Below, piece after piece: positions 11,884 through 50,825 of a DNA stretch of 64,000 bases. Source of the DNA: an uncultured Eubacteriales bacterium (lineage in GTDB: Bacteria > Bacillota_I > Bacilli_A > RF39 > UBA660). The notes under the pieces were generated by a model. It did no database searches. It was not told the origin of the DNA and worked only from the letters and a program-made list of their open reading frames with translations. Both the position numbers and the translations under genes were made by a program. The stretch spans positions 86,615 to 150,614 of the forward strand of contig CAJJKI010000001.1 in the NCBI GenBank assembly GCA_905188025.1, given 5' to 3'. The stretch's first letter is position 1. Each line of letters opens with the position of its first letter.

Positions 11884-13161
11884 TTATCTATAATTTACAT
11901 GTAATAGTTTTATTGCCTCTTCACTATTAGGCTCTATCAACAATTCTTTATATAATCTCTTAATCTTAGGATTTTCATAACTATTCTTTCTCTTAACAGT
12001 CTTATCTTTGTGATATATTGCCTTACTTCTAACTTCTTTATTTATATTAGTAATTTTATACTGCTTACTGCCTCCCCCTCCTGCTATACAACCTCCATCA
12101 CATGCCATTACTTCTACTATATCAAATTTTTCTCCATTCTTAATTCTATCCATTAATTTAGGAACATCACCAGTACCATTAATAACTGCTACTCTTATAT
12201 CTTTATCACCTAGCTTAATCACCCTAGTTTTAATATCCTCAAGTCCTCTCACTAGCTTATTATTAAGAAGTCTCTTCGGAGGATTTCTATGCGTAATAAG
12301 ATGATAACTATATCTAAGCATTGATTCCATAACTCCACCACTAGTACCAAAAATAAGTCCTGCTGAAGTACCTGTAAAGTCATCAAATCTTGAATTATCT
12401 AACTTTCTAAAATCAATGTCCCCTTCACGTATCCAACTAGCCATTTCTCTAACCGTAATTGCATAATCCACGTCATCACTCTTAGTTATCTCATATTTCT
12501 TAGCAGTACAAGGCACTATCGCTACTACCTTATATTTATTAATCCTATTCTTCTTAACAAAATAATTCTTAATAACTGCTCCCATCATTAATATAGGACT
12601 CTTTGTACTAGACAAATTACCTACCATCTCCGGATAAAATTCTTCCATATACTTAACCCATGCTGGGCAACAACTAGTAAACATTGGTGTCTCGCTCCCG
12701 TCTTCTAGTCTCCTAACAAACTCTTGAGCCTCTTCACAAATAGTTAGATCAGCTCCAAAAGAAGTATCAAATACATAACTAACTCCTAATTCATGAAGTG
12801 CTGTTATCAACTTACCAATAACATTCTTACCAGGCTTATATCCAAATTCATCTCCCAAAAGATATCTTGTTGCCGGAGCAATTTCTACAATTACTTGGTA
12901 TCCATTCTCTATATCCTTCTTTACCTTCTTATAGTCTTCTACCTCTAATATAGCATTATTAGGACATACCAAAGAACATTGTCCACAATTTATACATATA
13001 GGCTTCTTACTATGTTCCATATCATAGTGCCCATATACCCCCATCCTAAAATTACATATTCCCTTACAAGCTCCACAATTATTACACCTATCTAGATCAC
13101 GATAAATACATATATTATCTTTATCTATTGGAACCCTTTTTATATATTCTTTCTTATTCAT
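11884..13161 (-). CDS. hydA: [FeFe]-hydrogenase (two ferredoxin-type 4Fe-4S motifs plus H-cluster domain)
   Basis: H-cluster signatures FTSCCPAWV, VPCTAKKYE, EVMACDGGCIAGGGG. N-terminal CxxCxxCxxxC and CxxCxxCxxxCP motifs. Confidence 0.8.
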   Translation of the reverse strand: MNKKEYIKRVPIDKDNICIYRDLDRCNNCGACKGICNFRMGVYGHYDMEHSKKPICINCGQCSLVCPNNAILEVEDYKKVKKDIENGYQVIVEIAPATRYLLGDEFGYKPGKNVIGKLITALHELGVSYVFDTSFGADLTICEEAQEFVRRLEDGSETPMFTSCCPAWVKYMEEFYPEMVGNLSSTKSPILMMGAVIKNYFVKKNRINKYKVVAIVPCTAKKYEITKSDDVDYAITVREMASWIREGDIDFRKLDNSRFDDFTGTSAGLIFGTSGGVMESMLRYSYHLITHRNPPKRLLNNKLVRGLEDIKTRVIKLGDKDIRVAVINGTGDVPKLMDRIKNGEKFDIVEVMACDGGCIAGGGGSKQYKITNINKEVRSKAIYHKDKTVKRKNSYENPKIKRLYKELLIEPNSEEAIKLLHVNYR

Positions 13162-14155
13162 GATTTTTTACTGCATAATTATAAGCACTAGATACCATCT
13201 CAGGTAAGCCATGAGTAGCTTCCCAATCTAACTTTTCCTTAGCATAACTAGTATCAGCATAACATTCTGCTATATCTCCTTCTCTTCTTGGAGCTATCTC
13301 ATAAGGAACATCTACTTTATTAACTTCACTAAAAGCATTAACCATCTCAAGTACACTATAACCTACCCCTGTACCTAAATTATAATAATCTATTCCAGTA
13401 TGCTTATCAATATATTCAATAGCTTTAATATGACCAAGAGCTAAATCTACTACATGAATATAATCTCTTACTCCAGTACCATCTCTTGTCTCATAATCAT
13501 CACCAAATATATTTAAATGAGGTAATTCTCCTTCAGCTACCTTAACAATATAAGGCATTAAATTATTTGGTATACCATTAGGATCCTCTCCAAGTAATCC
13601 ACTCTCATGAGCCCCTACTGGATTAAAATATCTAAGTATTGCAATACTATAATCATTATCAGCTATATATACATCCTTTAAAATACCCTCTATATATAAC
13701 TTCGTAGTACCATATGGATTAGTAGTCTTAAGTCTAGCATTCTCCTTAATAGGCAATTCTTCTGGATCCCCATATACTGTAGCAGATGATGAGAACACTA
13801 TCTTCTTAACCCCATATTCATTCATTACTTCAAGTAAAGTTAATGTTGAATCAAGATTATTTCTATAATACATTAAAGGCTTAGCTACTGATTCTCCTAC
13901 TGCCTTAAATCCTGCAAAATGAATAACAGCATCTATCTTTTCCTTATCAAATACCTTTCTTAACTTCTCCTTATCACATACATCTAATTCATAAAAATTA
14001 ATCTCTTGCCCTGTTATCTCTTTAAGTCTATCTAATACAATAGGTTTAGAATTACTAAAATCATCTACTGCTACCACTTCATATCCTCTCTTCAATAATT
14101 CTACAATTGTATGACTTCCTATATAACCAGTTCCTCCAGTTACTAATATTTTCAT
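13154..14155 (-). CDS. galE: UDP-glucose 4-epimerase
   Basis: MKILVTGGTGYIGSHT Rossmann motif, SSSATVYG, YGTTK catalytic motif. Start re-set to ATG 14155 after AGGAGGAG. Confidence 0.9.
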   Translation of the reverse strand: MKILVTGGTGYIGSHTIVELLKRGYEVVAVDDFSNSKPIVLDRLKEITGQEINFYELDVCDKEKLRKVFDKEKIDAVIHFAGFKAVGESVAKPLMYYRNNLDSTLTLLEVMNEYGVKKIVFSSSATVYGDPEELPIKENARLKTTNPYGTTKLYIEGILKDVYIADNDYSIAILRYFNPVGAHESGLLGEDPNGIPNNLMPYIVKVAEGELPHLNIFGDDYETRDGTGVRDYIHVVDLALGHIKAIEYIDKHTGIDYYNLGTGVGYSVLEMVNAFSEVNKVDVPYEIAPRREGDIAECYADTSYAKEKLDWEATHGLPEMVSSAYNYAVKNHE

Positions 14156-16895: not shown

Positions 16896-19800
16896 TTATA
16901 TTCTTTTTTTGAATAATAACATTACTATTCCTAGAATAAATAATCCAATATTATTAGTATTATTTCCTTCATATCCAGTTTGTGGTGGCAATGGTATTAA
17001 ACTATATACGTAAGTAACTTCTTGTGTTTCTTCCATATATTCACCAGTTTCATTACCCTTAACTTCTTTCAAATAATACTTATCAAAAGCTTTCTTATTA
17101 GCCTTATATTCAGATCCTACTAATCCAGTCATCTCTTCACTTGGAGCAAGTTCTTCTCCATCTTCAGTAACATAATTAACTATTACAGTTCCCTTAAGTA
17201 CCTTAGTACCAGTTTCATCCTTAGATGGCTTCTCAGTATCTCCATAAGTAAGCATTGCTTCTACTTTGTTAATAACCATTTCTTTATCAACATTTTTAAA
17301 ATATAATTCTAAATTAATTACCACTTCAATTGTATTATCTTCTTCACTATTAATAGTCTTATTATATTCACAAACTATCATAGAATTAATATATTTACAA
17401 GCAATATTATTATTAGTATCAATAATTGATTTTTCCACATCTATTTCATATGGTAAAACATCTTTAATAACTAATTTAACATCACCTACATAATCTTTAA
17501 TTACTGCATTATACGTAATCGTATATATAAATGCCTCATTAATTGAAGATACTTCCTCAAGACCTATCTTTTGAACTTCTTCTTCTGAAGTACCAATATT
17601 CTTTGTATACACATATTTAACAATAATATCTTCTTCTGTATATACTCCATTCTTATTAACTGGCATTTCCTTTAAAGTATATCCAAGAATTGATTTTTCA
17701 TGCGTTGTATATTCACTATCAATAAGTCCTGTCGTCTCTTCACTATCTGCTAATGTATTATTTGCTTCATCAACATAAATAGCTGTTACTTTAGATGCTT
17801 TAATAACATCCTCAACACTATCATTAGAGTTTTCCTTATTGTTTCCATAAGTAAGTTCTGCATTAACAATATTCTTAACTGTTAAATCAGTTTCACTAGT
17901 TAATCCAAGATATTTAACTATTACATGGAATTCTGCATTAACAAGATTATTTTTTTCATCTATTTTAACTGTCTTAAAGCATGTTAATGTATTCGTATCT
18001 TTATTAAAACTACAAGCATTTTCATCATATTTTATTTCTTTTACAGTATAAGGTAATTTATCTGTAAGTTTAATCGTAGCACTTCCTACATAGTCTTCAA
18101 TCTTACCATTATAACTAAGAACATATTCAAACTCTGAATTTATTCCAGATATTTCTTTTATTTGTGTCTTTGATGTCACTGTTTCACTAACTGTACCATC
18201 ATTTTTAGTATATATATAATCTACATAAATAGTTTCTTTAGCCGCATATTTACCATTCTTATTAACTGGCATTTCTTTTAAAGTATATCCATATATTTCT
18301 TTTTCATGAGTAGTATATTCAGATCCACCAAGTCCTGTATTAGATACTTCAGGAGCTATTTCCTTCTTATCTTCATCTAAATATCTAGCAATAACTGTAC
18401 CCTTGAATACTTCAGTTTCAGTTTCATCTTTACCTTCAGAAGTATTTTTTCCATATTCTAACTTAGATTCAACTTTATTAGTAATCTTATCAGAATCAAT
18501 ATTCTTAAATTTTAGTGATAAAGCAAAACTTGCTTCTACCTTAGTATTATTTTCACTAATAGTAAATTCTTTCTCACAAGTTAATGTTTTATCTTGAACA
18601 TTGTAAGTACATCCCTCATAAGTAGAATTATCATCTAATTCATAAGGTAATCTATCTACTAAAGTTAATTTAGCAGTACCTTTATAATCCTTAATTTCTC
18701 CCTTATAAGTTAATGTATAATTAAATACTCCATTAACACTAGTAATATCTTTTGGACCAGTCTTAACTACACTATTCTCAGTAACTGTTCCATCATTCTT
18801 AGTATAAGTAAATACTACTTCTGTTGTTCCTTCAATATATTTACCATTAGTATTACCTGTGTCTTCTTTAAAAGTATATCCATATATTTCTTTCTTTGTT
18901 TCATTATAAGTTGTTCCTACTGCTTTTGTAGTTAAAACTGGCTCTAATAAATCTTTTCCATTTTCATCTACATGTTTAACAGTTAAATTACCTTGAATAT
19001 TAACTTCTACTTCTGTGCTATCTTCTACACCATTAGTATTAATATTTTTAACCATAACATTTCCATGTACAGTATTTGTTAACTTATTATTATCACTTGC
19101 TGATATATCTGCATAATCAACATAAACAACACTATAATTAACTGTTTCACTTACAGTATATTCTTTTACAAAATCTTCTTCTACAGTTATTTCTTTAATC
19201 CAAGTAACTTTATTATTTCCATCATATACCCCATCATTTAATTTAGTACTCTTATTATTTGTATCTATCTTAGCAGGTAGTGTATCTACAATTGTAACTG
19301 TTATCTTATCATCTTTTCTAACATTATTAACTACAGCCTCATAATTAACTGTATAATTAACAACTGTCTTACTATCTATAATTATTTCATTATTAGTAGT
19401 AGTCTTTTTAATACTTTCTTTTCCATAAGGAATTTCAGTTTTAATATAATATATATTTAAATCATTTTCATCTGGATTTGTTCCAATTTTCTTTTCTTGA
19501 TAATTATAAGCATTCTTATCTGGATCTAAGAAATAATTACCCTTATTATTAAGAACTTCTTCCTTTAAATGATATTCTGAAGCCTTAATAGTACTTCCAT
19601 ACTCTTTAGTTCCCTCTTCTGTTAATTCAGTATCTTGATTATTATCAAAATAATAATTAACTGTAAATTTAAACATATCCTTAATATAATATACATTAAT
19701 TACTTTATTATCACTATCAATAGTAACAATATTTTTATCACTCTTAATATCATCTAATTTATATCCTTTTAATTCATATTTTTCAATGATACTATTATCT

Positions 19801-21467
19801 TGTAAATTTAAATAATATCCTTTTGAATCAACTTTTGTTCCATATACTACATTATCTACTTTAATTGATTCAAATGCTACATTACTATTGTCTTTATAAT
19901 AATTAACTGTATAACTAAATTTCTTTAAAGTATATAAAACTTTAATCACAGTCTCATCATCAGTATTAGTAATAGTAATACTTTCTGGATCAATACTATT
20001 AAATTCATATCCTGCACCAGCTTTATTTAAATATTTATCTTTGTCTACATTATTTATATCAATAACTGTTCCCGCTGGAGCTGTTCTCTCATCACTTGCT
20101 ATTCTATTATTATCATCACTAGTACTATCTTTATAATAATTAACTATATACTTATATTCTCTTTGTTTCCAATAAACATAAGGATCCTTATCACTATTTA
20201 TCTCTTGTTCTACTCCATCATTATCAGTATATATTAATTTAAATCCTTCATTAGTAGGATACCATCCAGTTTCAGTATCTGGATCAATCTCTATATTAAA
20301 TGTATAAGTAAGTGTATTTTTAGTAATCTTTTCAATTACTTCTCCTTGATAAACATTATCTTTTTCATTATAACTGCCATTATCACTAACATTTTCTACT
20401 AGTTTAAACTTACTACCAATATTATCTATCAAAGTAGCATTCTTTCCAGGAACAATCATTTCTTTTGCCAAATCACTAAATACTTTTACTATTTCACTCT
20501 CATTACTAGCACTATAATAATTATCATTACTACTTGCTACTAATTCAAGTACTTCTTTAGTTTTAATATTCCTATAATCTACTCCTTTATAAGAATAATT
20601 TTCATTTAAAGCTATATCATTTTCATTAATTCCATATCCTATAGAGAATATTGTTATTCCACTATTCTTAAGACTATCTGCTTCTTTAAATGTTGCATTT
20701 AAAATACTACTACTTGTAGCAGAACCAGTTCCTTCTACACTAGTATGTTCTCTACCATCTCTACCAGTATAAGTATAATTATAATATGTTGGCTTTCCAT
20801 CACTCATAACTACTACATATTTTAGTGCTGTAGCCTTATCTTCTTCTGGAATAGTACTAAAATATTCTCCAGCTTTAACTAACCCATCATGTAAATTGGT
20901 TCCCTCGTTAGGTTCACCAAAATTGCTATCAACAAACCCTTCATGTTTAAAATCACGATCTTTAGTAGCAGTATCAGCAAATGTTACTAGAGCTACCTTT
21001 GCATTCTTTAATCCAGTTTCATCATTGATTAAAGAATTAGCAAATGTTTTAGCACCTTTTACTGCATTATTCCATTTTTCCATGTTATAGCAGCCATTTC
21101 TTTTACAATCACCCATACTACCAGATCTATCAAATACTACTACAACATATACTGGTTTCTCTTGTGGAGTTTCCTTTCCTTTAATTTCAAATTCAACTTG
21201 ATATTTACCATTACTAGCATCTATTGCTGTAACAGTTTTCTTGACTGAAATGTCATTATTTTTAGAATTTACTTCCGTACTAACACTATTATTACTAGAT
21301 ATTTCTCCATCAAGTCCTAACTTAATAGATCCTACAGGTATCTCACTATCATTATTTGCTAATTCTGCTGCAAATACCTGTATTGGAGCTTGAAAACTAG
21401 AAAAAATCATACTAATAAGCATCAATATCTTTGTAAATTTTTCCAAAAATCTTTTCATTTTCTTCAT
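16896..21467 (-). CDS. cell-wall-anchored adhesin: signal peptide, vWFA domain, YxVNYY repeats, 4 x (Ig-like + MucBP-like) modules, PPQTG sorting signal
   Basis: MIDAS VVVVFDRSGSM. Repeated VxxYVDExxxxL...GxxYxTxxKxIxGYTLKE...YTKN modules. C-terminus PLPPQTG + hydrophobic helix + KKRI. Confidence 0.85.
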   Translation of the reverse strand: MKKMKRFLEKFTKILMLISMIFSSFQAPIQVFAAELANNDSEIPVGSIKLGLDGEISSNNSVSTEVNSKNNDISVKKTVTAIDASNGKYQVEFEIKGKETPQEKPVYVVVVFDRSGSMGDCKRNGCYNMEKWNNAVKGAKTFANSLINDETGLKNAKVALVTFADTATKDRDFKHEGFVDSNFGEPNEGTNLHDGLVKAGEYFSTIPEEDKATALKYVVVMSDGKPTYYNYTYTGRDGREHTSVEGTGSATSSSILNATFKEADSLKNSGITIFSIGYGINENDIALNENYSYKGVDYRNIKTKEVLELVASSNDNYYSASNESEIVKVFSDLAKEMIVPGKNATLIDNIGSKFKLVENVSDNGSYNEKDNVYQGEVIEKITKNTLTYTFNIEIDPDTETGWYPTNEGFKLIYTDNDGVEQEINSDKDPYVYWKQREYKYIVNYYKDSTSDDNNRIASDERTAPAGTVIDINNVDKDKYLNKAGAGYEFNSIDPESITITNTDDETVIKVLYTLKKFSYTVNYYKDNSNVAFESIKVDNVVYGTKVDSKGYYLNLQDNSIIEKYELKGYKLDDIKSDKNIVTIDSDNKVINVYYIKDMFKFTVNYYFDNNQDTELTEEGTKEYGSTIKASEYHLKEEVLNNKGNYFLDPDKNAYNYQEKKIGTNPDENDLNIYYIKTEIPYGKESIKKTTTNNEIIIDSKTVVNYTVNYEAVVNNVRKDDKITVTIVDTLPAKIDTNNKSTKLNDGVYDGNNKVTWIKEITVEEDFVKEYTVSETVNYSVVYVDYADISASDNNKLTNTVHGNVMVKNINTNGVEDSTEVEVNIQGNLTVKHVDENGKDLLEPVLTTKAVGTTYNETKKEIYGYTFKEDTGNTNGKYIEGTTEVVFTYTKNDGTVTENSVVKTGPKDITSVNGVFNYTLTYKGEIKDYKGTAKLTLVDRLPYELDDNSTYEGCTYNVQDKTLTCEKEFTISENNTKVEASFALSLKFKNIDSDKITNKVESKLEYGKNTSEGKDETETEVFKGTVIARYLDEDKKEIAPEVSNTGLGGSEYTTHEKEIYGYTLKEMPVNKNGKYAAKETIYVDYIYTKNDGTVSETVTSKTQIKEISGINSEFEYVLSYNGKIEDYVGSATIKLTDKLPYTVKEIKYDENACSFNKDTNTLTCFKTVKIDEKNNLVNAEFHVIVKYLGLTSETDLTVKNIVNAELTYGNNKENSNDSVEDVIKASKVTAIYVDEANNTLADSEETTGLIDSEYTTHEKSILGYTLKEMPVNKNGVYTEEDIIVKYVYTKNIGTSEEEVQKIGLEEVSSINEAFIYTITYNAVIKDYVGDVKLVIKDVLPYEIDVEKSIIDTNNNIACKYINSMIVCEYNKTINSEEDNTIEVVINLELYFKNVDKEMVINKVEAMLTYGDTEKPSKDETGTKVLKGTVIVNYVTEDGEELAPSEEMTGLVGSEYKANKKAFDKYYLKEVKGNETGEYMEETQEVTYVYSLIPLPPQTGYEGNNTNNIGLFILGIVMLLFKKRI

Positions 21468-46875: not shown

Positions 46876-46902
46876 GTTAAAAACTAGCAAAAAGCTAGTT
46901 TT
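46876..46902 (-). terminator. intrinsic terminator after the extended surface-protein reading frame
   Basis: Minus strand: AAAACTAGC-ttttt-GCTAGTTTT followed by T/A. Lies about 50 nt after the second stop (46950), but about 290 nt after the first stop (47193). Confidence 0.65.
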
Positions 46903-46949: not shown

Positions 46950-47192
46950 TCACCCTACATATGATATGACTGAACGGAAAGCACCCCCATAGTTGGTATT
47001 AGCGTCGCCTTGGTTACCTCTAAAACAAAATGCACCAGCAGTTTCACTATTGTAGTAGAAGTCACCACGCTCAAACCACGGATCGTAGGCGTAGACAAAT
47101 CCAGCGGCATCACCATACCAGCTGTTTACTTCTGATAATCCATGACCGTAACATATTCCTCCATTACACGCAGTTAACTCATTTATTGAGGT
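46950..47192 (-). other. 80-codon in-frame continuation of the FGE-like domain beyond the TGA at 47193-47195
   Basis: Hand translation: TSINELTACNGGICYGHGLSEVNSWYGDAAGFVYAYDPWFERGDFYYNSETAGAFCFRGNQGDANTNYGGAFRSVISYVG*. Same frame as the upstream ORF; visibly more G+C-rich than its surroundings. Confidence 0.65.
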
Positions 47193-49193
47193 TCAATTTT
47201 CAGCCTTGTAAACGTCATAATATTTACTATCAGGAAAATCTACTCCTGTATATGAGCTCCCATTACTTCCTACTAACCCAGTAAATCCAGAATTTCCACT
47301 CCATAAAGTACCATTGGAATTAGCAAATACTCCCATTACCCATTCCCACGATCCTCCGGACATATCATATACCCCTGTTATATTACCAGTTGTACTAGCC
47401 ACTTTACTTATATCATGGGTAGTACTTTTAATATCGGTATTATATTCAAATAAATATCCATCCCAGGTGTAAAAACCATACCAATTATATTGCGTCGTAG
47501 AAGTCTGGTCAGTATATACAGTATTTATGGCTGTACTCCCTCCAACATTTCCACCACTACGGCCAGTATGCATATCAGTTGAATTATTAAAATTTATTTC
47601 CCTATTCACTCCGTATTTAGAATGTGATAAATAAGCTACCGCTCCCCATTCACTATTCTTCATCATATGAGCATCAATCTTTGAAGTAGAACCATATACA
47701 CTTGTGCCTAATTTTTGTGCTGTGGTAAACTGCGCTGATATTTTTTGATTTCTAAGTGACTGAAGATTTGGTTTTATTGTCGGAGTATCCTCTATACCAG
47801 TAGTTTCAAATTTACCGACCCATATTCCATTAAGAATCTCATTTTGTTCTAGTATTCCATCACTATTATTATCCCACCAAAAAGCTGGATGAGTTATATA
47901 ATCACCTATTTGAGGAACAGCACTCTTAACTACTGTTTCATTAGTTTCAATAAATGTACCAGTTGGAGTTATTTGATCAGTATTATCTTCATTATACATG
48001 TTAATCATATTTTCAATCGGAATAGGACCTGCATCTTCTACACCCTGTACTATTGAACTTCCAGTATTCAAAACATTATTTACGTCAGTAGTAGCTTGTT
48101 CTAAAGTATAGCTAGTATTCATTTCAGCTGATATAAAACTATGAAACCAAGTAATTAACTTTTGTTTTTCTAAAGCAGTAACACTATATGGAGCATTATA
48201 ACATTCAGAATTATCAATAAGATTAGGATTTTCTAAATCAGCACAACTACCAATCGTTTGTACATTTGGAACATAAGCCTTAGTATTTTTATTTTCAAAA
48301 ACTATTTGTATTTCCTGTTCTTGACCGGTTTTACTTTCATTATCTACTGACCATATTTTATATTTATACCTTGGTATCCATACATAATATGCTAATATGT
48401 CATCTTCATTTACTGTAACCCCTGTAGTATTCAAATAATTTGCTCTTGAATTATTATTAACAAGCACTACATTTGCCCATTGTTTTTTCTTATAATTGTA
48501 CCAGCTAGTATCATCTTTTGATATTGTTTTAGTTATTCCAGTATCCGATATAACTACCGGTATCATTCCATCATCTAAATCAGGTACATTAGGTTCTACC
48601 GGTATTGCATCAGTACAGCTACCATTTAATGATAAACTGAATGATTGATCCATCGTATCACTGCTAGTCTCATTTGCATCTAACCATATCCATAAATAAT
48701 ATGTACTAGTGTCACTTGCACTAAAAGTTTCACTATCTAAAAGCCTTATCTTGTTTCCTGCTTTCTTACCATTAAAGTTTCCACTAGCTATAACTCCAGT
48801 AGTATTACTAGTACTACTCGTAGTAAATGCATACTTAAAGTTAACACTATTTGATAGACCACTATCTAGTTTATTTATATCTAGCCATAAATCCATATAT
48901 ATAGTTTTACCACTTTCATTAATTGTCGGAGTTACCTTTACTTCTCTTTTTATATAATTAGCTGAAGTACTACTGTTAACTAAAGTTGGTACAATTATTG
49001 CACTATTATTAGTAATGCTTCCACCACCATCTGCTGCACATGAAAAAGTTCTCTCTACCGTAAATACAATATTAGTCTTTTGCGCTTCACTACTTATCCA
49101 TGAAAAGTATGCTAAAGATCCACCAATTATTGTAAATATAACAGTCAATATTACCAATACTAAAATTATCTTTTTATTCTTATCATTATCCAT
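47193..49193 (-). CDS. secreted/surface protein: SipW-type (TasA/camelysin-like) signal peptide + beta-rich region + FGE-sulfatase (SUMF1)-like domain, prematurely terminated
   Basis: N-terminus KKIILVLVILTVIFTIIGGSLAYFSW. GVYDMSGGSWEWV matches the FGE-family GxxDMxGNxWEW block. Likely start is ATG 49193, 7 nt after GGAGGT; the track start is a TTG. Confidence 0.7.
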   Translation of the reverse strand: MDNDKNKKIILVLVILTVIFTIIGGSLAYFSWISSEAQKTNIVFTVERTFSCAADGGGSITNNSAIIVPTLVNSSTSANYIKREVKVTPTINESGKTIYMDLWLDINKLDSGLSNSVNFKYAFTTSSTSNTTGVIASGNFNGKKAGNKIRLLDSETFSASDTSTYYLWIWLDANETSSDTMDQSFSLSLNGSCTDAIPVEPNVPDLDDGMIPVVISDTGITKTISKDDTSWYNYKKKQWANVVLVNNNSRANYLNTTGVTVNEDDILAYYVWIPRYKYKIWSVDNESKTGQEQEIQIVFENKNTKAYVPNVQTIGSCADLENPNLIDNSECYNAPYSVTALEKQKLITWFHSFISAEMNTSYTLEQATTDVNNVLNTGSSIVQGVEDAGPIPIENMINMYNEDNTDQITPTGTFIETNETVVKSAVPQIGDYITHPAFWWDNNSDGILEQNEILNGIWVGKFETTGIEDTPTIKPNLQSLRNQKISAQFTTAQKLGTSVYGSTSKIDAHMMKNSEWGAVAYLSHSKYGVNREINFNNSTDMHTGRSGGNVGGSTAINTVYTDQTSTTQYNWYGFYTWDGYLFEYNTDIKSTTHDISKVASTTGNITGVYDMSGGSWEWVMGVFANSNGTLWSGNSGFTGLVGSNGSSYTGVDFPDSKYYDVYKAEN

Positions 49194-49213
49194 AAGCTTT
49201 ACCTCCAAATGGT

Positions 49214-49236
49214 ACTAAAGTATTCTACTTTAATAC
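49214..49236. repeat. left arm of a perfect 23-bp inverted repeat
   Basis: ACTAAAGTATTCTACTTTAATAC is the exact reverse complement of 49382-49404. Contains the internal palindrome AAAGTA-TTC-TACTTT. Confidence 0.95.
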
Positions 49237-49334
49237 ACTTGAAATTTTTTGTAAGGTATTGAAAATAAAGAGATTATATGAATTTAATGTATTTCAAAAC
49301 ATAATATTTTTATCAATTTAAAACATATTCTATC

Positions 49335-49363
49335 TTTACATAAAACCTTATATTTGCTATAAT
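49335..49363 (+). promoter_or_regulatory. strong extended -10 promoter inside the IR-bounded segment, facing right (away from the surface-protein gene)
   Basis: TTTACA 49335-49340, 17-nt spacer, TGc TATAAT 49355-49363. Confidence 0.6.
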
Positions 49364-49381
49364 TATATCAAGATAGAAATG

Positions 49382-49404
49382 GTATTAAAGTAGAATACTT
49401 TAGT
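49382..49404. repeat. right arm of the perfect 23-bp inverted repeat
   Basis: GTATTAAAGTAGAATACTTTAGT; followed by GTCATTTTTTGTTTTT. Confidence 0.95.
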
Positions 49405-49433
49405 GTCATTTTTTGTTTTTAAATATTAAATTA

Positions 49434-49462
49434 TTGATATTTTTATATCTTTATATTATAAT
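49434..49462 (+). promoter_or_regulatory. promoter TTGATA-17-TATAAT of candidate antitoxin sRNA (copy 1)
   Basis: -35 at 49434-49439, -10 at 49457-49462. Confidence 0.6.
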
Positions 49463-49468
49463 GAATAT

Positions 49469-49577
49469 AGATGAAGGAAACTTCATACAATAAAAAGGAA
49501 CACTTAGTATTAGTGTGCTAAGTACTCCAATTTGGTTTGTGTACCTAACAAACTATGTTAGGTACGTTTTTTATTTT
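49469..49577 (+). ncRNA. candidate ~110-nt antisense sRNA (type I antitoxin), convergent with the small toxin ORF
   Basis: Bounded by its promoter and terminator. Has a 5' hairpin ATGAAG-GAAA-CTTCAT (49471-49486) and no ORF. Its 3' end overlaps the toxin stop codon and the predicted toxin 3' UTR. Confidence 0.5.
49541..49577 (+). terminator. intrinsic terminator
   Basis: Perfect 10-bp stem GTACCTAACA-aacta-TGTTAGGTAC followed by GTTTTTTATTTT. Confidence 0.75.
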
Positions 49578-49657
49578 ATAATCAACAAGATGATTATTAA
49601 TAGTAAAAGGAGGATTATAATACTATGGAAAATATTTATATAATCTTTCTTACTCAT
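49571..49657 (-). CDS. candidate type I toxin: 28-aa hydrophobic peptide MSKKDYINIFHSIIILLLLLIIILLIIK (below the ORF-track cutoff)
   Basis: ATG 49657 lies 6 nt after GGGAGGTG. Charged N-terminus, a single TM helix, terminal Lys. The 5' UTR can fold CCUUAUUCUUAU-AAA-AUAAGAUUGGGAGG, occluding the SD. Confidence 0.5.
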   Translation of the reverse strand: MSKKDYINIFHSIIILLLLLIIILLIIK

Positions 49658-49722
49658 TAAAATCACCTCCCAATCTTATTTTATAAGAATAAGGAGTACC
49701 TAACTGCTAAGTGTTCTCATAC

Positions 49723-49751
49723 ATAATAACAGGTTATTTTTGTCTTGTCAA
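49723..49751 (-). promoter_or_regulatory. promoter TTGACA-17-TATTAT of the toxin mRNA
   Basis: Minus strand: -35 at 49746-49751, -10 at 49723-49728. Confidence 0.6.
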
Positions 49752-49806
49752 ACATTTTATCTTAAAGTTAATTTTTCAAAAAATTAATTAACTTTAAGTT
49801 AAATAC

Positions 49807-49835
49807 TTGATGAAAAATAGTTTTTATATTATAAT
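49807..49835 (+). promoter_or_regulatory. promoter TTGATG-17-TATAAT of sRNA copy 2
   Basis: -35 at 49807-49812, -10 at 49830-49835. The -10 and downstream sequence are identical to copy 1. Confidence 0.55.
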
Positions 49836-49841
49836 GAATAT

Positions 49842-49918
49842 AAGTGAAGGAAACTTCATTCATATTAGAGAAACACTTAGTTCTATTTGAACCTAGCAAT
49901 CTTGTTAGGTAATTTTTA
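49842..49918 (+). ncRNA. second, shorter copy of the sRNA (no intact toxin partner)
   Basis: Shares TTATATTATAATGAATATA, TGAAGGAAACTTCAT and AACACTTAGT blocks with copy 1. Ends in ACCTAGCAA-tc-TTGTTAGGT + AATTTTT. Confidence 0.4.
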
Positions 49919-50010
49919 TACTAAACAACAAAGGCAATAATACACAAGCCTCACCTACATTTCGTTTAGATAAAAAATAGCACTATATGTTTCTCTATAT
50001 ATTTTTTACG

Positions 50011-50048
50011 CCAAAAAATAACATATGACTTGATGCATATGTTATTTT
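50011..50048 (-). terminator. intrinsic terminator after the nucleoside phosphorylase gene
   Basis: Minus strand: AATAACATATG-loop-CATATGTTATT followed by TTTTTGG. Confidence 0.6.
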
Positions 50049-50057
50049 TATTTATAT

Positions 50058-50825
50058 TTACATTTCTCTAGCTAATTCTAAAGCTAACTCCATTACTAGT
50101 ATCTTATCTTCTACTCTTTCATTTCCTGATAAGCTTCTCTTCTCCCAGTAATCATTATCTAAGTTATCAGCTGCATAAAAGAAAGTCATTAAATCTATTC
50201 CCCTAAAATCACATACTGCCTGTAATGCTGCTGCTTCCATCTCTACACAAATAGCACCATTATTCTTCATCTTAATAACCTTCTCTTTAGTCTCTCTATA
50301 AAAAGCATCCGTTGTCCATGTAGTACCTTCTACATAACTATATCCTTTATTATTTAATATTCTTTTAAATACATTACTATATTTTTTATTAATATCTATA
50401 AATAAAGAATCCTCTATATAATGGTAACTTAATCCATCACCTCTAATAGCTTTATTAGGAATAATTATAGCTAAATCTGCTACATTTTTATCAAGTACTC
50501 CACAATTACCAAATACTATAAACTTATTAGCCCCCATCGCATGCACATCTTCTATACAAGTAGCAGCAGCCGGAGCCCCTACACTCATCATAAACATAGC
50601 GTACCTTTTTCCCTTATATTCTATTCTATATATTTTCTTAACTGTATCAGTATAATCTAATTCTCCTATTACTTCTCCTTGATATTTTTCTATTATCTTA
50701 TCAAATAATACATGTGAATAACATGCTATTGCTATCTCTGGCATACCACCTATCTTCTTAACAAAATCACTTGGATTAATTATTGCTACTTTTTCTTTAG
50801 AATATCTTTCTATCATCTTTATCAC
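50058..50825 (-). CDS. nucleoside phosphorylase (PNP_UDP_1 family, uridine-phosphorylase-like)
   Basis: SVGAPAAATCIED, RGDGLSYHY, WTTDAFYRET and VEMEAAAL motifs. Confidence 0.75.
   Translation of the reverse strand: MIKMIERYSKEKVAIINPSDFVKKIGGMPEIAIACYSHVLFDKIIEKYQGEVIGELDYTDTVKKIYRIEYKGKRYAMFMMSVGAPAAATCIEDVHAMGANKFIVFGNCGVLDKNVADLAIIIPNKAIRGDGLSYHYIEDSLFIDINKKYSNVFKRILNNKGYSYVEGTTWTTDAFYRETKEKVIKMKNNGAICVEMEAAALQAVCDFRGIDLMTFFYAADNLDNDYWEKRSLSGNERVEDKILVMELALELAREM

Follow-up and report, generated by a model that had tools for sequence, protein, structure and literature searches.

Is the 191-bp unit directly upstream of a minus-strand gene in this genome an invertible promoter, whose orientation would set the expression of that gene? 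A sequence-only reading of the window (the whole stretch of DNA analysed here, 64,000 nucleotides long) raised the question by pointing to a 145-bp segment with a promoter inside, bracketed by 23-bp inverted repeats and acted on by a recombinase in trans, and named paired operator sites and a MITE-like element as alternatives. Comparison with about 100 fetched loci leads us to conclude that the unit is very probably an invertible promoter switch (inverton). The window has a G+C content of 28%, and 57 of its 62 long open reading frames (ORFs) lie on the minus strand. The features that bear on the question are listed in Table 1.

Table 1. Positions in the window of the putative switch and of the gene beside it.
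Feature	Position	Strand	Details and basis
Putative gene-proximal recombination site (left inverted repeat)	49207..49236		23-mer 49214-49236; centre TTC 49223-49225
Putative gene-distal recombination site (right inverted repeat)	49382..49411		23-mer 49382-49404; centre GAA 49393-49395
Probable invertible segment, 145 bp, OFF orientation here	49237..49381		comparison with L001, L088, L093 and L089
Main promoter (predicted), TTTACA-17-TGcTATAAT	49335..49363	+	11/12 consensus plus TG extension; -35 TTTACA at 49335, TATAAT 49358-49363; conserved across homologous switches
Second, overlapping extended -10 (TGATATAAT)	49362..49370	-	read directly from the sequence; directed toward the gene
Shine-Dalgarno GGAGG (49202-49206) and ATG (49191-49193)	49191..49206	-	read from the sequence
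Putatively controlled gene, 666 codons, ends at a premature TGA	47193..49193	-	ORF and comparison with homologues
Remainder of the frame past the premature stop; normal stop 46950-46952	46950..47192	-	98% identity to the C-terminus of P0001
Weak terminator-like hairpin beyond the full-length frame	46878..46902	-	by eye; not called by scan

The 23-bp sequence ACTAAAGTATTCTACTTTAATAC lies on the plus strand in the left arm and recurs as its exact reverse complement in the right arm, at the very coordinates given by the sequence-only reading, and this pair is the strongest inverted repeat of the entire window. The arms run on outward, imperfectly, to about 30 nt (AAATGGT/AAATGAC plus the 23-mer, with 2 mismatches), so that 13 nt separate the extended left arm, and 20 nt the perfect 23-mer, from the ATG. 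Within each arm lies a 17-bp palindrome, TAAAGTA-TTC-TACTTTA (49216-49232 and 49386-49402), the asymmetry of which is confined to its 3-nt centre. The full site is an imperfect palindrome of about 30-35 bp that consists of AAATGRYAYTAAAG, the 7-bp spacer TATTCTA and CTTTARTRYCATTT; the spacer is its sole asymmetric part and is inverted between the two sites of a locus. The segment between the arms contains no ORF. A short segment bounded by repeats and placed in the 5' leader of a gene is the arrangement expected of an inverton. Rfam searches returned nothing relevant, either for the whole window at the gathering threshold or for 49100-50100 at an E-value threshold, and the repeat core has no match in the searchable literature.

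The strong plus-strand promoter described in the sequence-only reading is present inside the segment, where it reads rightward and is directed away from the adjacent gene. A consensus scan of this AT-rich stretch yields 12 promoter-like matches against 10.1 expected; such matches are common here, so the weight of the main promoter comes from its conservation and not from its consensus match alone. Specifically, no other block of the segment is as well conserved among homologous switches as this promoter, which is directed at the gene in L089, L041, L042, L047, L048, L091, L094 and L097. On consensus and conservation, the main promoter is predicted to be active, and it would drive the adjacent gene in one orientation only. 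The earlier statement that nothing but a lone TATAAT (49273-49278) points toward the gene needs correction, as it overlooked a second extended -10, TGATATAAT, which overlaps the main -10 and has a weak -35. This element was missed by the consensus scan, is not kept in L041, L042 and L047, and is a possible source of low transcription in the OFF state.

The window's own locus, with a PNP-family gene upstream and an ABC-transporter gene downstream, was recovered from three other assemblies, namely a near-identical strain on a 226-kb ENA metagenome contig (L001), a JGI contig (L093) and L088. All three segments are 99% identical to that of the window and have the same orientation; the ON orientation was not found at this locus in the four independent assemblies, all of which are OFF. 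When the promoter served as a search pattern against JGI metagenomes, it retrieved L089, the segment of which is identical to the window's at 136 of 145 positions (94%) and lies in the opposite orientation, with its promoter toward the gene. Its leader (5' UTR) and coding start are also about 95% identical to those of the window. By alignment, L089 appears to be effectively the ON form of the window's switch type, at a rearranged locus. The L089 switch (13137-13561) lies between a full family gene and, on its distal side, a 63-codon remnant of a divergent family gene, which sits where L103 has a complete paralogue, adjoining CotZ and Na/Ala-symporter genes. Additionally, the two repeat centres of L089 are unequal (TTT versus TTC). 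These features suggest a past rearrangement between two switch loci.

The search for both orientations that the sequence-only reading had proposed thus returned only OFF at the window's own locus, and it returned both at a paralogous locus beside leuS. A homologue of the gene (P0005, 83% identical) adjoins leuS on 21 contigs; the six loci retrieved from this set (L002-L007) have imperfect upstream repeats with the core TAAAGCATTCTACTT. Two of these, L006 and L004, come from different samples and differ over 7277 bp by 2 SNPs and a 169-bp block (2294-2462) that is exactly reverse-complemented, and by nothing else. At both ends, the inverted block is flanked by the core TAAAGCATTCTACTT, 15 bp that are identical and inverted; as the repeats are imperfect outside the core, the exchange point lies inside these 15 bp. 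L007 is flipped like L004, and L002, L003 and L005 have the other form, as in L006. In the flipped form, the promoter TTGATA-17-TGaTATTAT faces the gene. Repeats of 15-23 bp cannot mislead an assembler working at k = 141, and the leuS inversion is therefore a real polymorphism. The presence of both orientations at one locus of the same species indicates that the recombinase is active in the lineage. As read from the assemblies, such orientation differences indicate that inversion happens in the lineage, and they address its occurrence rather than its rate or its reversibility within a clone.

The leuS locus belongs to a larger set. Repeat pairs with the core AAGYATYNTACTT are found upstream of family genes at about two dozen loci in metagenome-assembled genomes (MAGs) of related uncultured gut Bacilli/"Tenericutes", with 127-169 bp between the two sites and 4-30 nt between the proximal arm and the ATG. 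In the window's species, switch loci adjoin PNP/ABC, leuS, RloB, infC-rpmI and a DUF285 gene, and a second switch with an identical core (L102) lies on the L001 contig, 100 kb from the first. Further pairs occur in the MAGs CAKOQC01, CAMGAM01, CALVON01 and CAKOPG01 and on other JGI contigs. When orientation is scored by the conserved promoter, 13 of 36 copies are ON (L004, L007, L022, L023, L024, L041, L042, L047, L048, L089, L091, L094 and L097) and 23 are OFF (the window, L001, L088, L093, L008, L009, L087, L086, L002, L003, L005, L006, L102, L103, L104, L017, L019, L020, L026, L046, L054, L092 and L016). Single genomes hold both states: the MAG CAKOQC01 has seven switches, three ON (L022, L023, L024) and four OFF (L020, L026, L046, L054), and the MAG CAKOPG01 has L048 ON and L016 OFF. 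The leuS inversion and the two orientations at about two dozen loci support the central proposal of the sequence-only reading, an invertible promoter segment that makes the adjacent gene phase-variable under a recombinase acting in trans.

The size of 191 bp and the terminal inverted repeats would also fit a MITE-like mobile element with 23-bp termini that inserted upstream of the gene by chance. However, such an element should be dispersed, and ACTAAAGTATTCTACTTTAATAC forms a single pair in the 64 kb, with no further copy when up to 3 mismatches are allowed (shuffled sequences gave 0 matches, n = 100); an exact scan of 185,579 representative genomes also gave no match, the species being absent there or its repeats different. 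There is no target-site duplication around the repeats, which are flanked by TGGT and GTCA. The core does recur at the related loci, yet solely in the 5' leaders of a single gene family, where the element consistently lies 11-30 nt before the start codon. Conservation within the element is concentrated in the promoter and the repeat cores. Its distal neighbours differ from locus to locus, which ties it to the 5' end of the gene instead of marking it as dispersed. Moreover, three or four unrelated sequence types can be told apart among the inner segments, each with a good promoter and all with one repeat core, as expected of a recombinase target rather than of a transposon family. We consider a MITE-like origin hardly credible.

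The same comparison bears on the proposal that the arms are paired operators for a dimeric transcription factor, which would loop the DNA around a fixed promoter with no inversion. In its favour, each arm contains a 7-3-7 palindrome, and the two centres are 168 bp apart, about 16 helical turns. Paired operators cannot, however, account for the exact inversions of a homologous segment that exist in nature. The asymmetric centre (TTC versus GAA) is kept inverted at nearly every locus and co-varies between the arms, with concerted changes at both repeats of the RloB locus (TTG/TTG in L008 and L009 versus TTA/TTA in L087) and of the leuS locus (AAAGC/AAAGC in L002-L007 versus AAAGT/AAAGT in L102). 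Additionally, with distal neighbours that differ, a fixed promoter pointing away from the gene would lack a conserved target. Operator pairing is thus very unlikely, and promoter inversion is the reading that we pursue below.

Several loci depart from the common pattern. At the RloB-adjacent locus, apparently the same one in L086, L008 and L087, the inner segment is of type B in L086 and of type A in L008/L087, and the family genes also differ, which would imply cassette exchange between paralogous loci. In L024 and L041 (and L042), all of them ON, the two repeat cores differ inside the proposed crossover region, and these copies may be locked ON. The paralogues L036, L014 and L015, in switch-bearing genomes, have a homologous promoter before the gene and no inverted repeats; they look like fixed, non-switchable copies. 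Inverted repeats are likewise missing before the paralogues of the MAG CAKOOM01 (L011, L027-L033 and L045), which represents a sister lineage. There, a conserved terminator and a TTGACA...TATCAT promoter lie about 100 nt upstream of each family gene, and the promoter spacer, 18-26 nt long, includes a run of T residues that varies from about 5 to 13. The same family would here seem to be phase-varied by another mechanism, strand slippage; if the T-tract does regulate these genes, phase variation would have evolved convergently on one gene family.

The minus-strand gene itself begins as the sequence-only reading had it, with the same Shine-Dalgarno sequence and ATG. Its frame is cut short by a nonsense change, GGA to TGA, at 47193-47195 and is otherwise open to 46950; homologues of the product are about 80 residues longer. 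The frame past the TGA is still 98% identical to intact homologues, and its loss is therefore recent. TGA recoding was considered as the cause of the in-frame stop and rejected: TGA ends 3 of 54 ORFs of the window, and otherwise none occurs in-frame in long ORFs. As the gene is truncated in this strain, switching may lack a phenotypic effect here. A separate promoter (TTGACA 46846..TATAGT 46818) serves the ABC-transporter gene downstream, so that the truncated gene looks monocistronic.

The truncation could also be taken as a mark of a fossil or locked switch, that is, an inverton-derived unit which no longer flips at this locus (for example, because its recombinase is lost or silent), the decaying locus being stuck OFF. 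Consistent with such decay, all four assemblies of the locus are OFF, the window and L001 have the premature TGA in common, and some related switches (L024, L041) have mismatched repeat centres. On the other hand, the window's repeats are perfect over 23 bp with matching centres, the L088 ortholog is intact behind an identical switch, and the leuS locus of the same species has been caught in both orientations. Furthermore, a bias toward OFF is normal for such systems, as illustrated by C. difficile Cdi5-7, which are 0.5-4% inverted (PMC5903667). We therefore regard a locked switch as unlikely, and by analogy with the leuS locus the window's own segment would be expected to invert.

What does the switch control? 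More than 2700 relatives of the 666-codon product were found, almost all of them metagenomic. In this family, the first ~280 residues are nearly invariant, the middle is variable or absent, and the C-terminal half is conserved. Its sole Pfam match is a C-terminal FGE-sulfatase-like domain, which scores below threshold here and above it in P0031; NCBIfam searched with the protein gave no family, and a sequence search of the PDB was empty. The N-terminus has a lysine-rich stretch followed by a hydrophobic helix, with no lipobox cysteine after the helix. The sequence GGSLAYFSW at the end of the helix resembles, as we take it, signal peptides of the TasA/camelysin type. The structure predicted for the homologue P0001 is poor (mean pLDDT 57), and Foldseek with this model gave weak matches to pilin-like beta-sandwiches (TM 0.3-0.36), a hint that we do not use as evidence. 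The sequence-only reading spoke of a surface-protein gene: gene and position are borne out, and, given a signal peptide with no library support and a poor model, secretion or membrane anchoring at the surface is a reasonable inference rather than a demonstration. Among representative genomes, the family is encoded by MAGs that bear the label uncultured Bacilli or Tenericutes bacterium and by Clostridium sp. CAG:914; the gut sources of the MAGs are human (Hadza), goat, rabbit and mouse, and up to 12-15 copies occur per MAG. A family with more than 2700 members of this kind is a probable set of variable surface antigens or adhesins.

Other genes of the window touch on the cell surface and on the host. 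Tad-pilus components (TadE, T2SSE and T2SSF) and a 1523-residue MucBP/internalin-like protein (16896-21467) are encoded, so that the organism has several other surface structures. The window and L103 both encode sporulation genes, which accords with the uncultured Mycoplasma-related Bacilli orders of PMC10868615.

Neither the window nor the flanks of the ~100 fetched loci yielded a recombinase, whether searched with a catalytic-motif regular expression or by phmmer with six seeds (FimB, FimE, IntE, PinE and two metagenomic recombinases), and a Pfam scan of 60 window ORFs showed none among the best 25 of the 82 families matched. These searches agree with the earlier observation that the window contains no recombinase gene, and since none lies near any switch either, the enzyme would act in trans. 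A Phage_integrase-family ORF on L097 (reverse strand, 34-534; Pfam E = 2.7e-17), which ends 60 nt away from an ON switch, on the side of its distal repeat, was examined as a candidate and rejected. The first half of its catalytic domain is deleted, and its intact relatives are found in unrelated contexts, adjoining amidase or capsule genes, with neither family genes nor repeat cores. The recombination site itself suggests that the recombinase is probably of the tyrosine type. The arms TAAAG / CTTTA enclose a 7-bp asymmetric spacer, in which two positions 4 nt apart have changed concertedly; this fits the 6-8-bp overlap of tyrosine recombinases, not the 2-bp crossover of serine recombinases.

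Immediately next to the distal repeat, the window contains a type I toxin-antitoxin-like module (49405-49950). It comprises a 28-codon hydrophobic ORF, MSKKDYINIFHSIIILLLLLIIILLIIK (49571-49657, minus strand), with the promoter TTGACA 49751..TATTAT 49723, and a convergent, strongly structured (z = -5.2) sRNA-like unit on the plus strand (~49469-49577) with its own promoter (49434-49462) and terminator (49539-49567). A second, partial copy of the 5' half of the sRNA is located at 49823-49910, and no Rfam family corresponds to the module. At another locus, L103, the module again adjoins the distal repeat, and in L029 its sRNA-like part precedes a family gene. In the OFF state, the switch promoter reads into the sRNA-like unit. 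A two-output toggle is conceivable, in which one trans-acting recombinase flips the promoters of the family and the OFF orientation aims the promoter into the antisense sRNA (here and in L103); we hold this to be rather unlikely. If it were true, the phase of the surface protein would be coupled to toxin control.

Taken together, we propose the following mechanism. A trans-encoded site-specific recombinase would bind both imperfectly palindromic sites of ~30-35 bp and exchange strands within the shared core around TATTCTA, which would flip the 145-bp segment. In the OFF orientation, as in the window, the promoter TTTACA-17-TGcTATAAT would be directed away from the gene. In the ON orientation, it would come to lie beside the gene-proximal repeat, and the transcript would start ~55 nt upstream of the ATG; in the ~55-nt leader, the repeat and its flanks are modelled to form a 16-bp 5' hairpin that leaves GGAGG free. 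Reversibility of this exchange within a clone would be expected. As a separate switch with the common core would serve each of several paralogues in the species (in related genomes, each of up to seven or more), a population would display changing combinations of the proteins.

Promoter inversion is a well-known route to phase variation. Predicted invertons have been catalogued in numbers above 200,000, human metagenomes included (PMC11602134), so that this element may already be listed anonymously. The interest of the present system lies in its host lineage, in the size of the controlled family and in the natural ON and OFF alleles at hand: it is a coherent multi-locus switch system in uncultured small-genome Bacilli from animal and human guts. 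To our knowledge, almost nothing is known of how such organisms present their surface to the host. With the recombination-site consensus in hand, the recombinase can be sought and switch states can be read from metagenomes.

How does the element compare with known switches? The sequence-only reading had likened it to the cwpV and flgB switches of Clostridioides difficile. This analogy holds for size, short repeats and a recombinase in trans, and it fails for the logic, because the promoter itself would invert here. The cwpV switch works via an orientation-dependent terminator in the leader. The flgB switch is promoterless and takes effect once transcription has initiated, by Rho-dependent termination in the leader (PMC7446863). 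Such switches pair a fixed upstream promoter with a promoterless segment, whereas here the strongest promoter is inside the segment, and the distal flank is an oppositely transcribed unit that varies between loci and has no conserved promoter reading into the switch. The Cdi switches consist of 154-230-bp segments with short inverted repeats, several loci being served by one recombinase, RecV (PMC5903667). They resemble the present system in occurring in a low-GC Firmicute and in separating a surface-related gene, at its start, from the DNA upstream; most of their repeats are mutually unrelated, whereas all loci here share one core.

Hin/Gin-type serine-invertase modules differ as well. They have the invertase gene and an enhancer in or beside a segment of at least ~1 kb, and 26-bp sites centred on a 2-bp crossover. 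Here, the segment measures 145 bp and is free of ORFs, and the search of the window for a PinE-like protein was negative. The centre of the palindrome is of odd length (3 nt), and 4 nt separate the concerted changes.

In its logic, the element appears to match fimS of E. coli, in that the promoter itself flips. The invertible promoter element fimS is the canonical mechanism (PMC7446863), and both elements would carry the promoter of an adjacent surface-structure gene between short inverted repeats. Unlike the present system, fimS is a single locus of 314 bp with 9-bp repeats, and the genes of its tyrosine recombinases, FimB and FimE, are directly adjacent; here, many paralogous loci share one site type, and no recombinase gene is nearby.

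In its organisation, by analogy, the element matches above all the mpl family of Mycoplasma penetrans and also the polysaccharide promoters of Bacteroides. Mpi, the master invertase of Bacteroides, belongs to the serine recombinases, whereas the sites here look more like a tyrosine-recombinase core. For Bacteroides fragilis, PMC2268961 cites inversions of capsular-polysaccharide promoters by a global recombinase. Many dispersed invertible promoters with a common repeat consensus, a recombinase in trans, a gut commensal as host and combinatorial surface variation are features that both systems would share, although polysaccharide operons are controlled there and single protein genes here, and the phylum is another.

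In the mpl (P35) lipoprotein family (Horino et al. 2003, as summarised in PMC2268961 and PMC10502178), 38 surface-protein genes are dispersed over the chromosome, and the majority are each preceded by an individual invertible promoter. The likeness would extend to a dispersed, variable surface-protein family, to independent ON/OFF control by short promoter-bearing segments, to a recombinase encoded outside the invertible segment and to a related host lineage (Mycoplasma-related Bacilli in GTDB terms). As in mpl, several paralogues have their own switches in mixed states, with two on the L001 contig and three ON and four OFF in CAKOQC01. The products here differ from P35 in having no lipobox, a C-terminal FGE-sulfatase-like domain and no sequence relation to it, and the host here is a walled, apparently spore-forming, uncultured gut organism.
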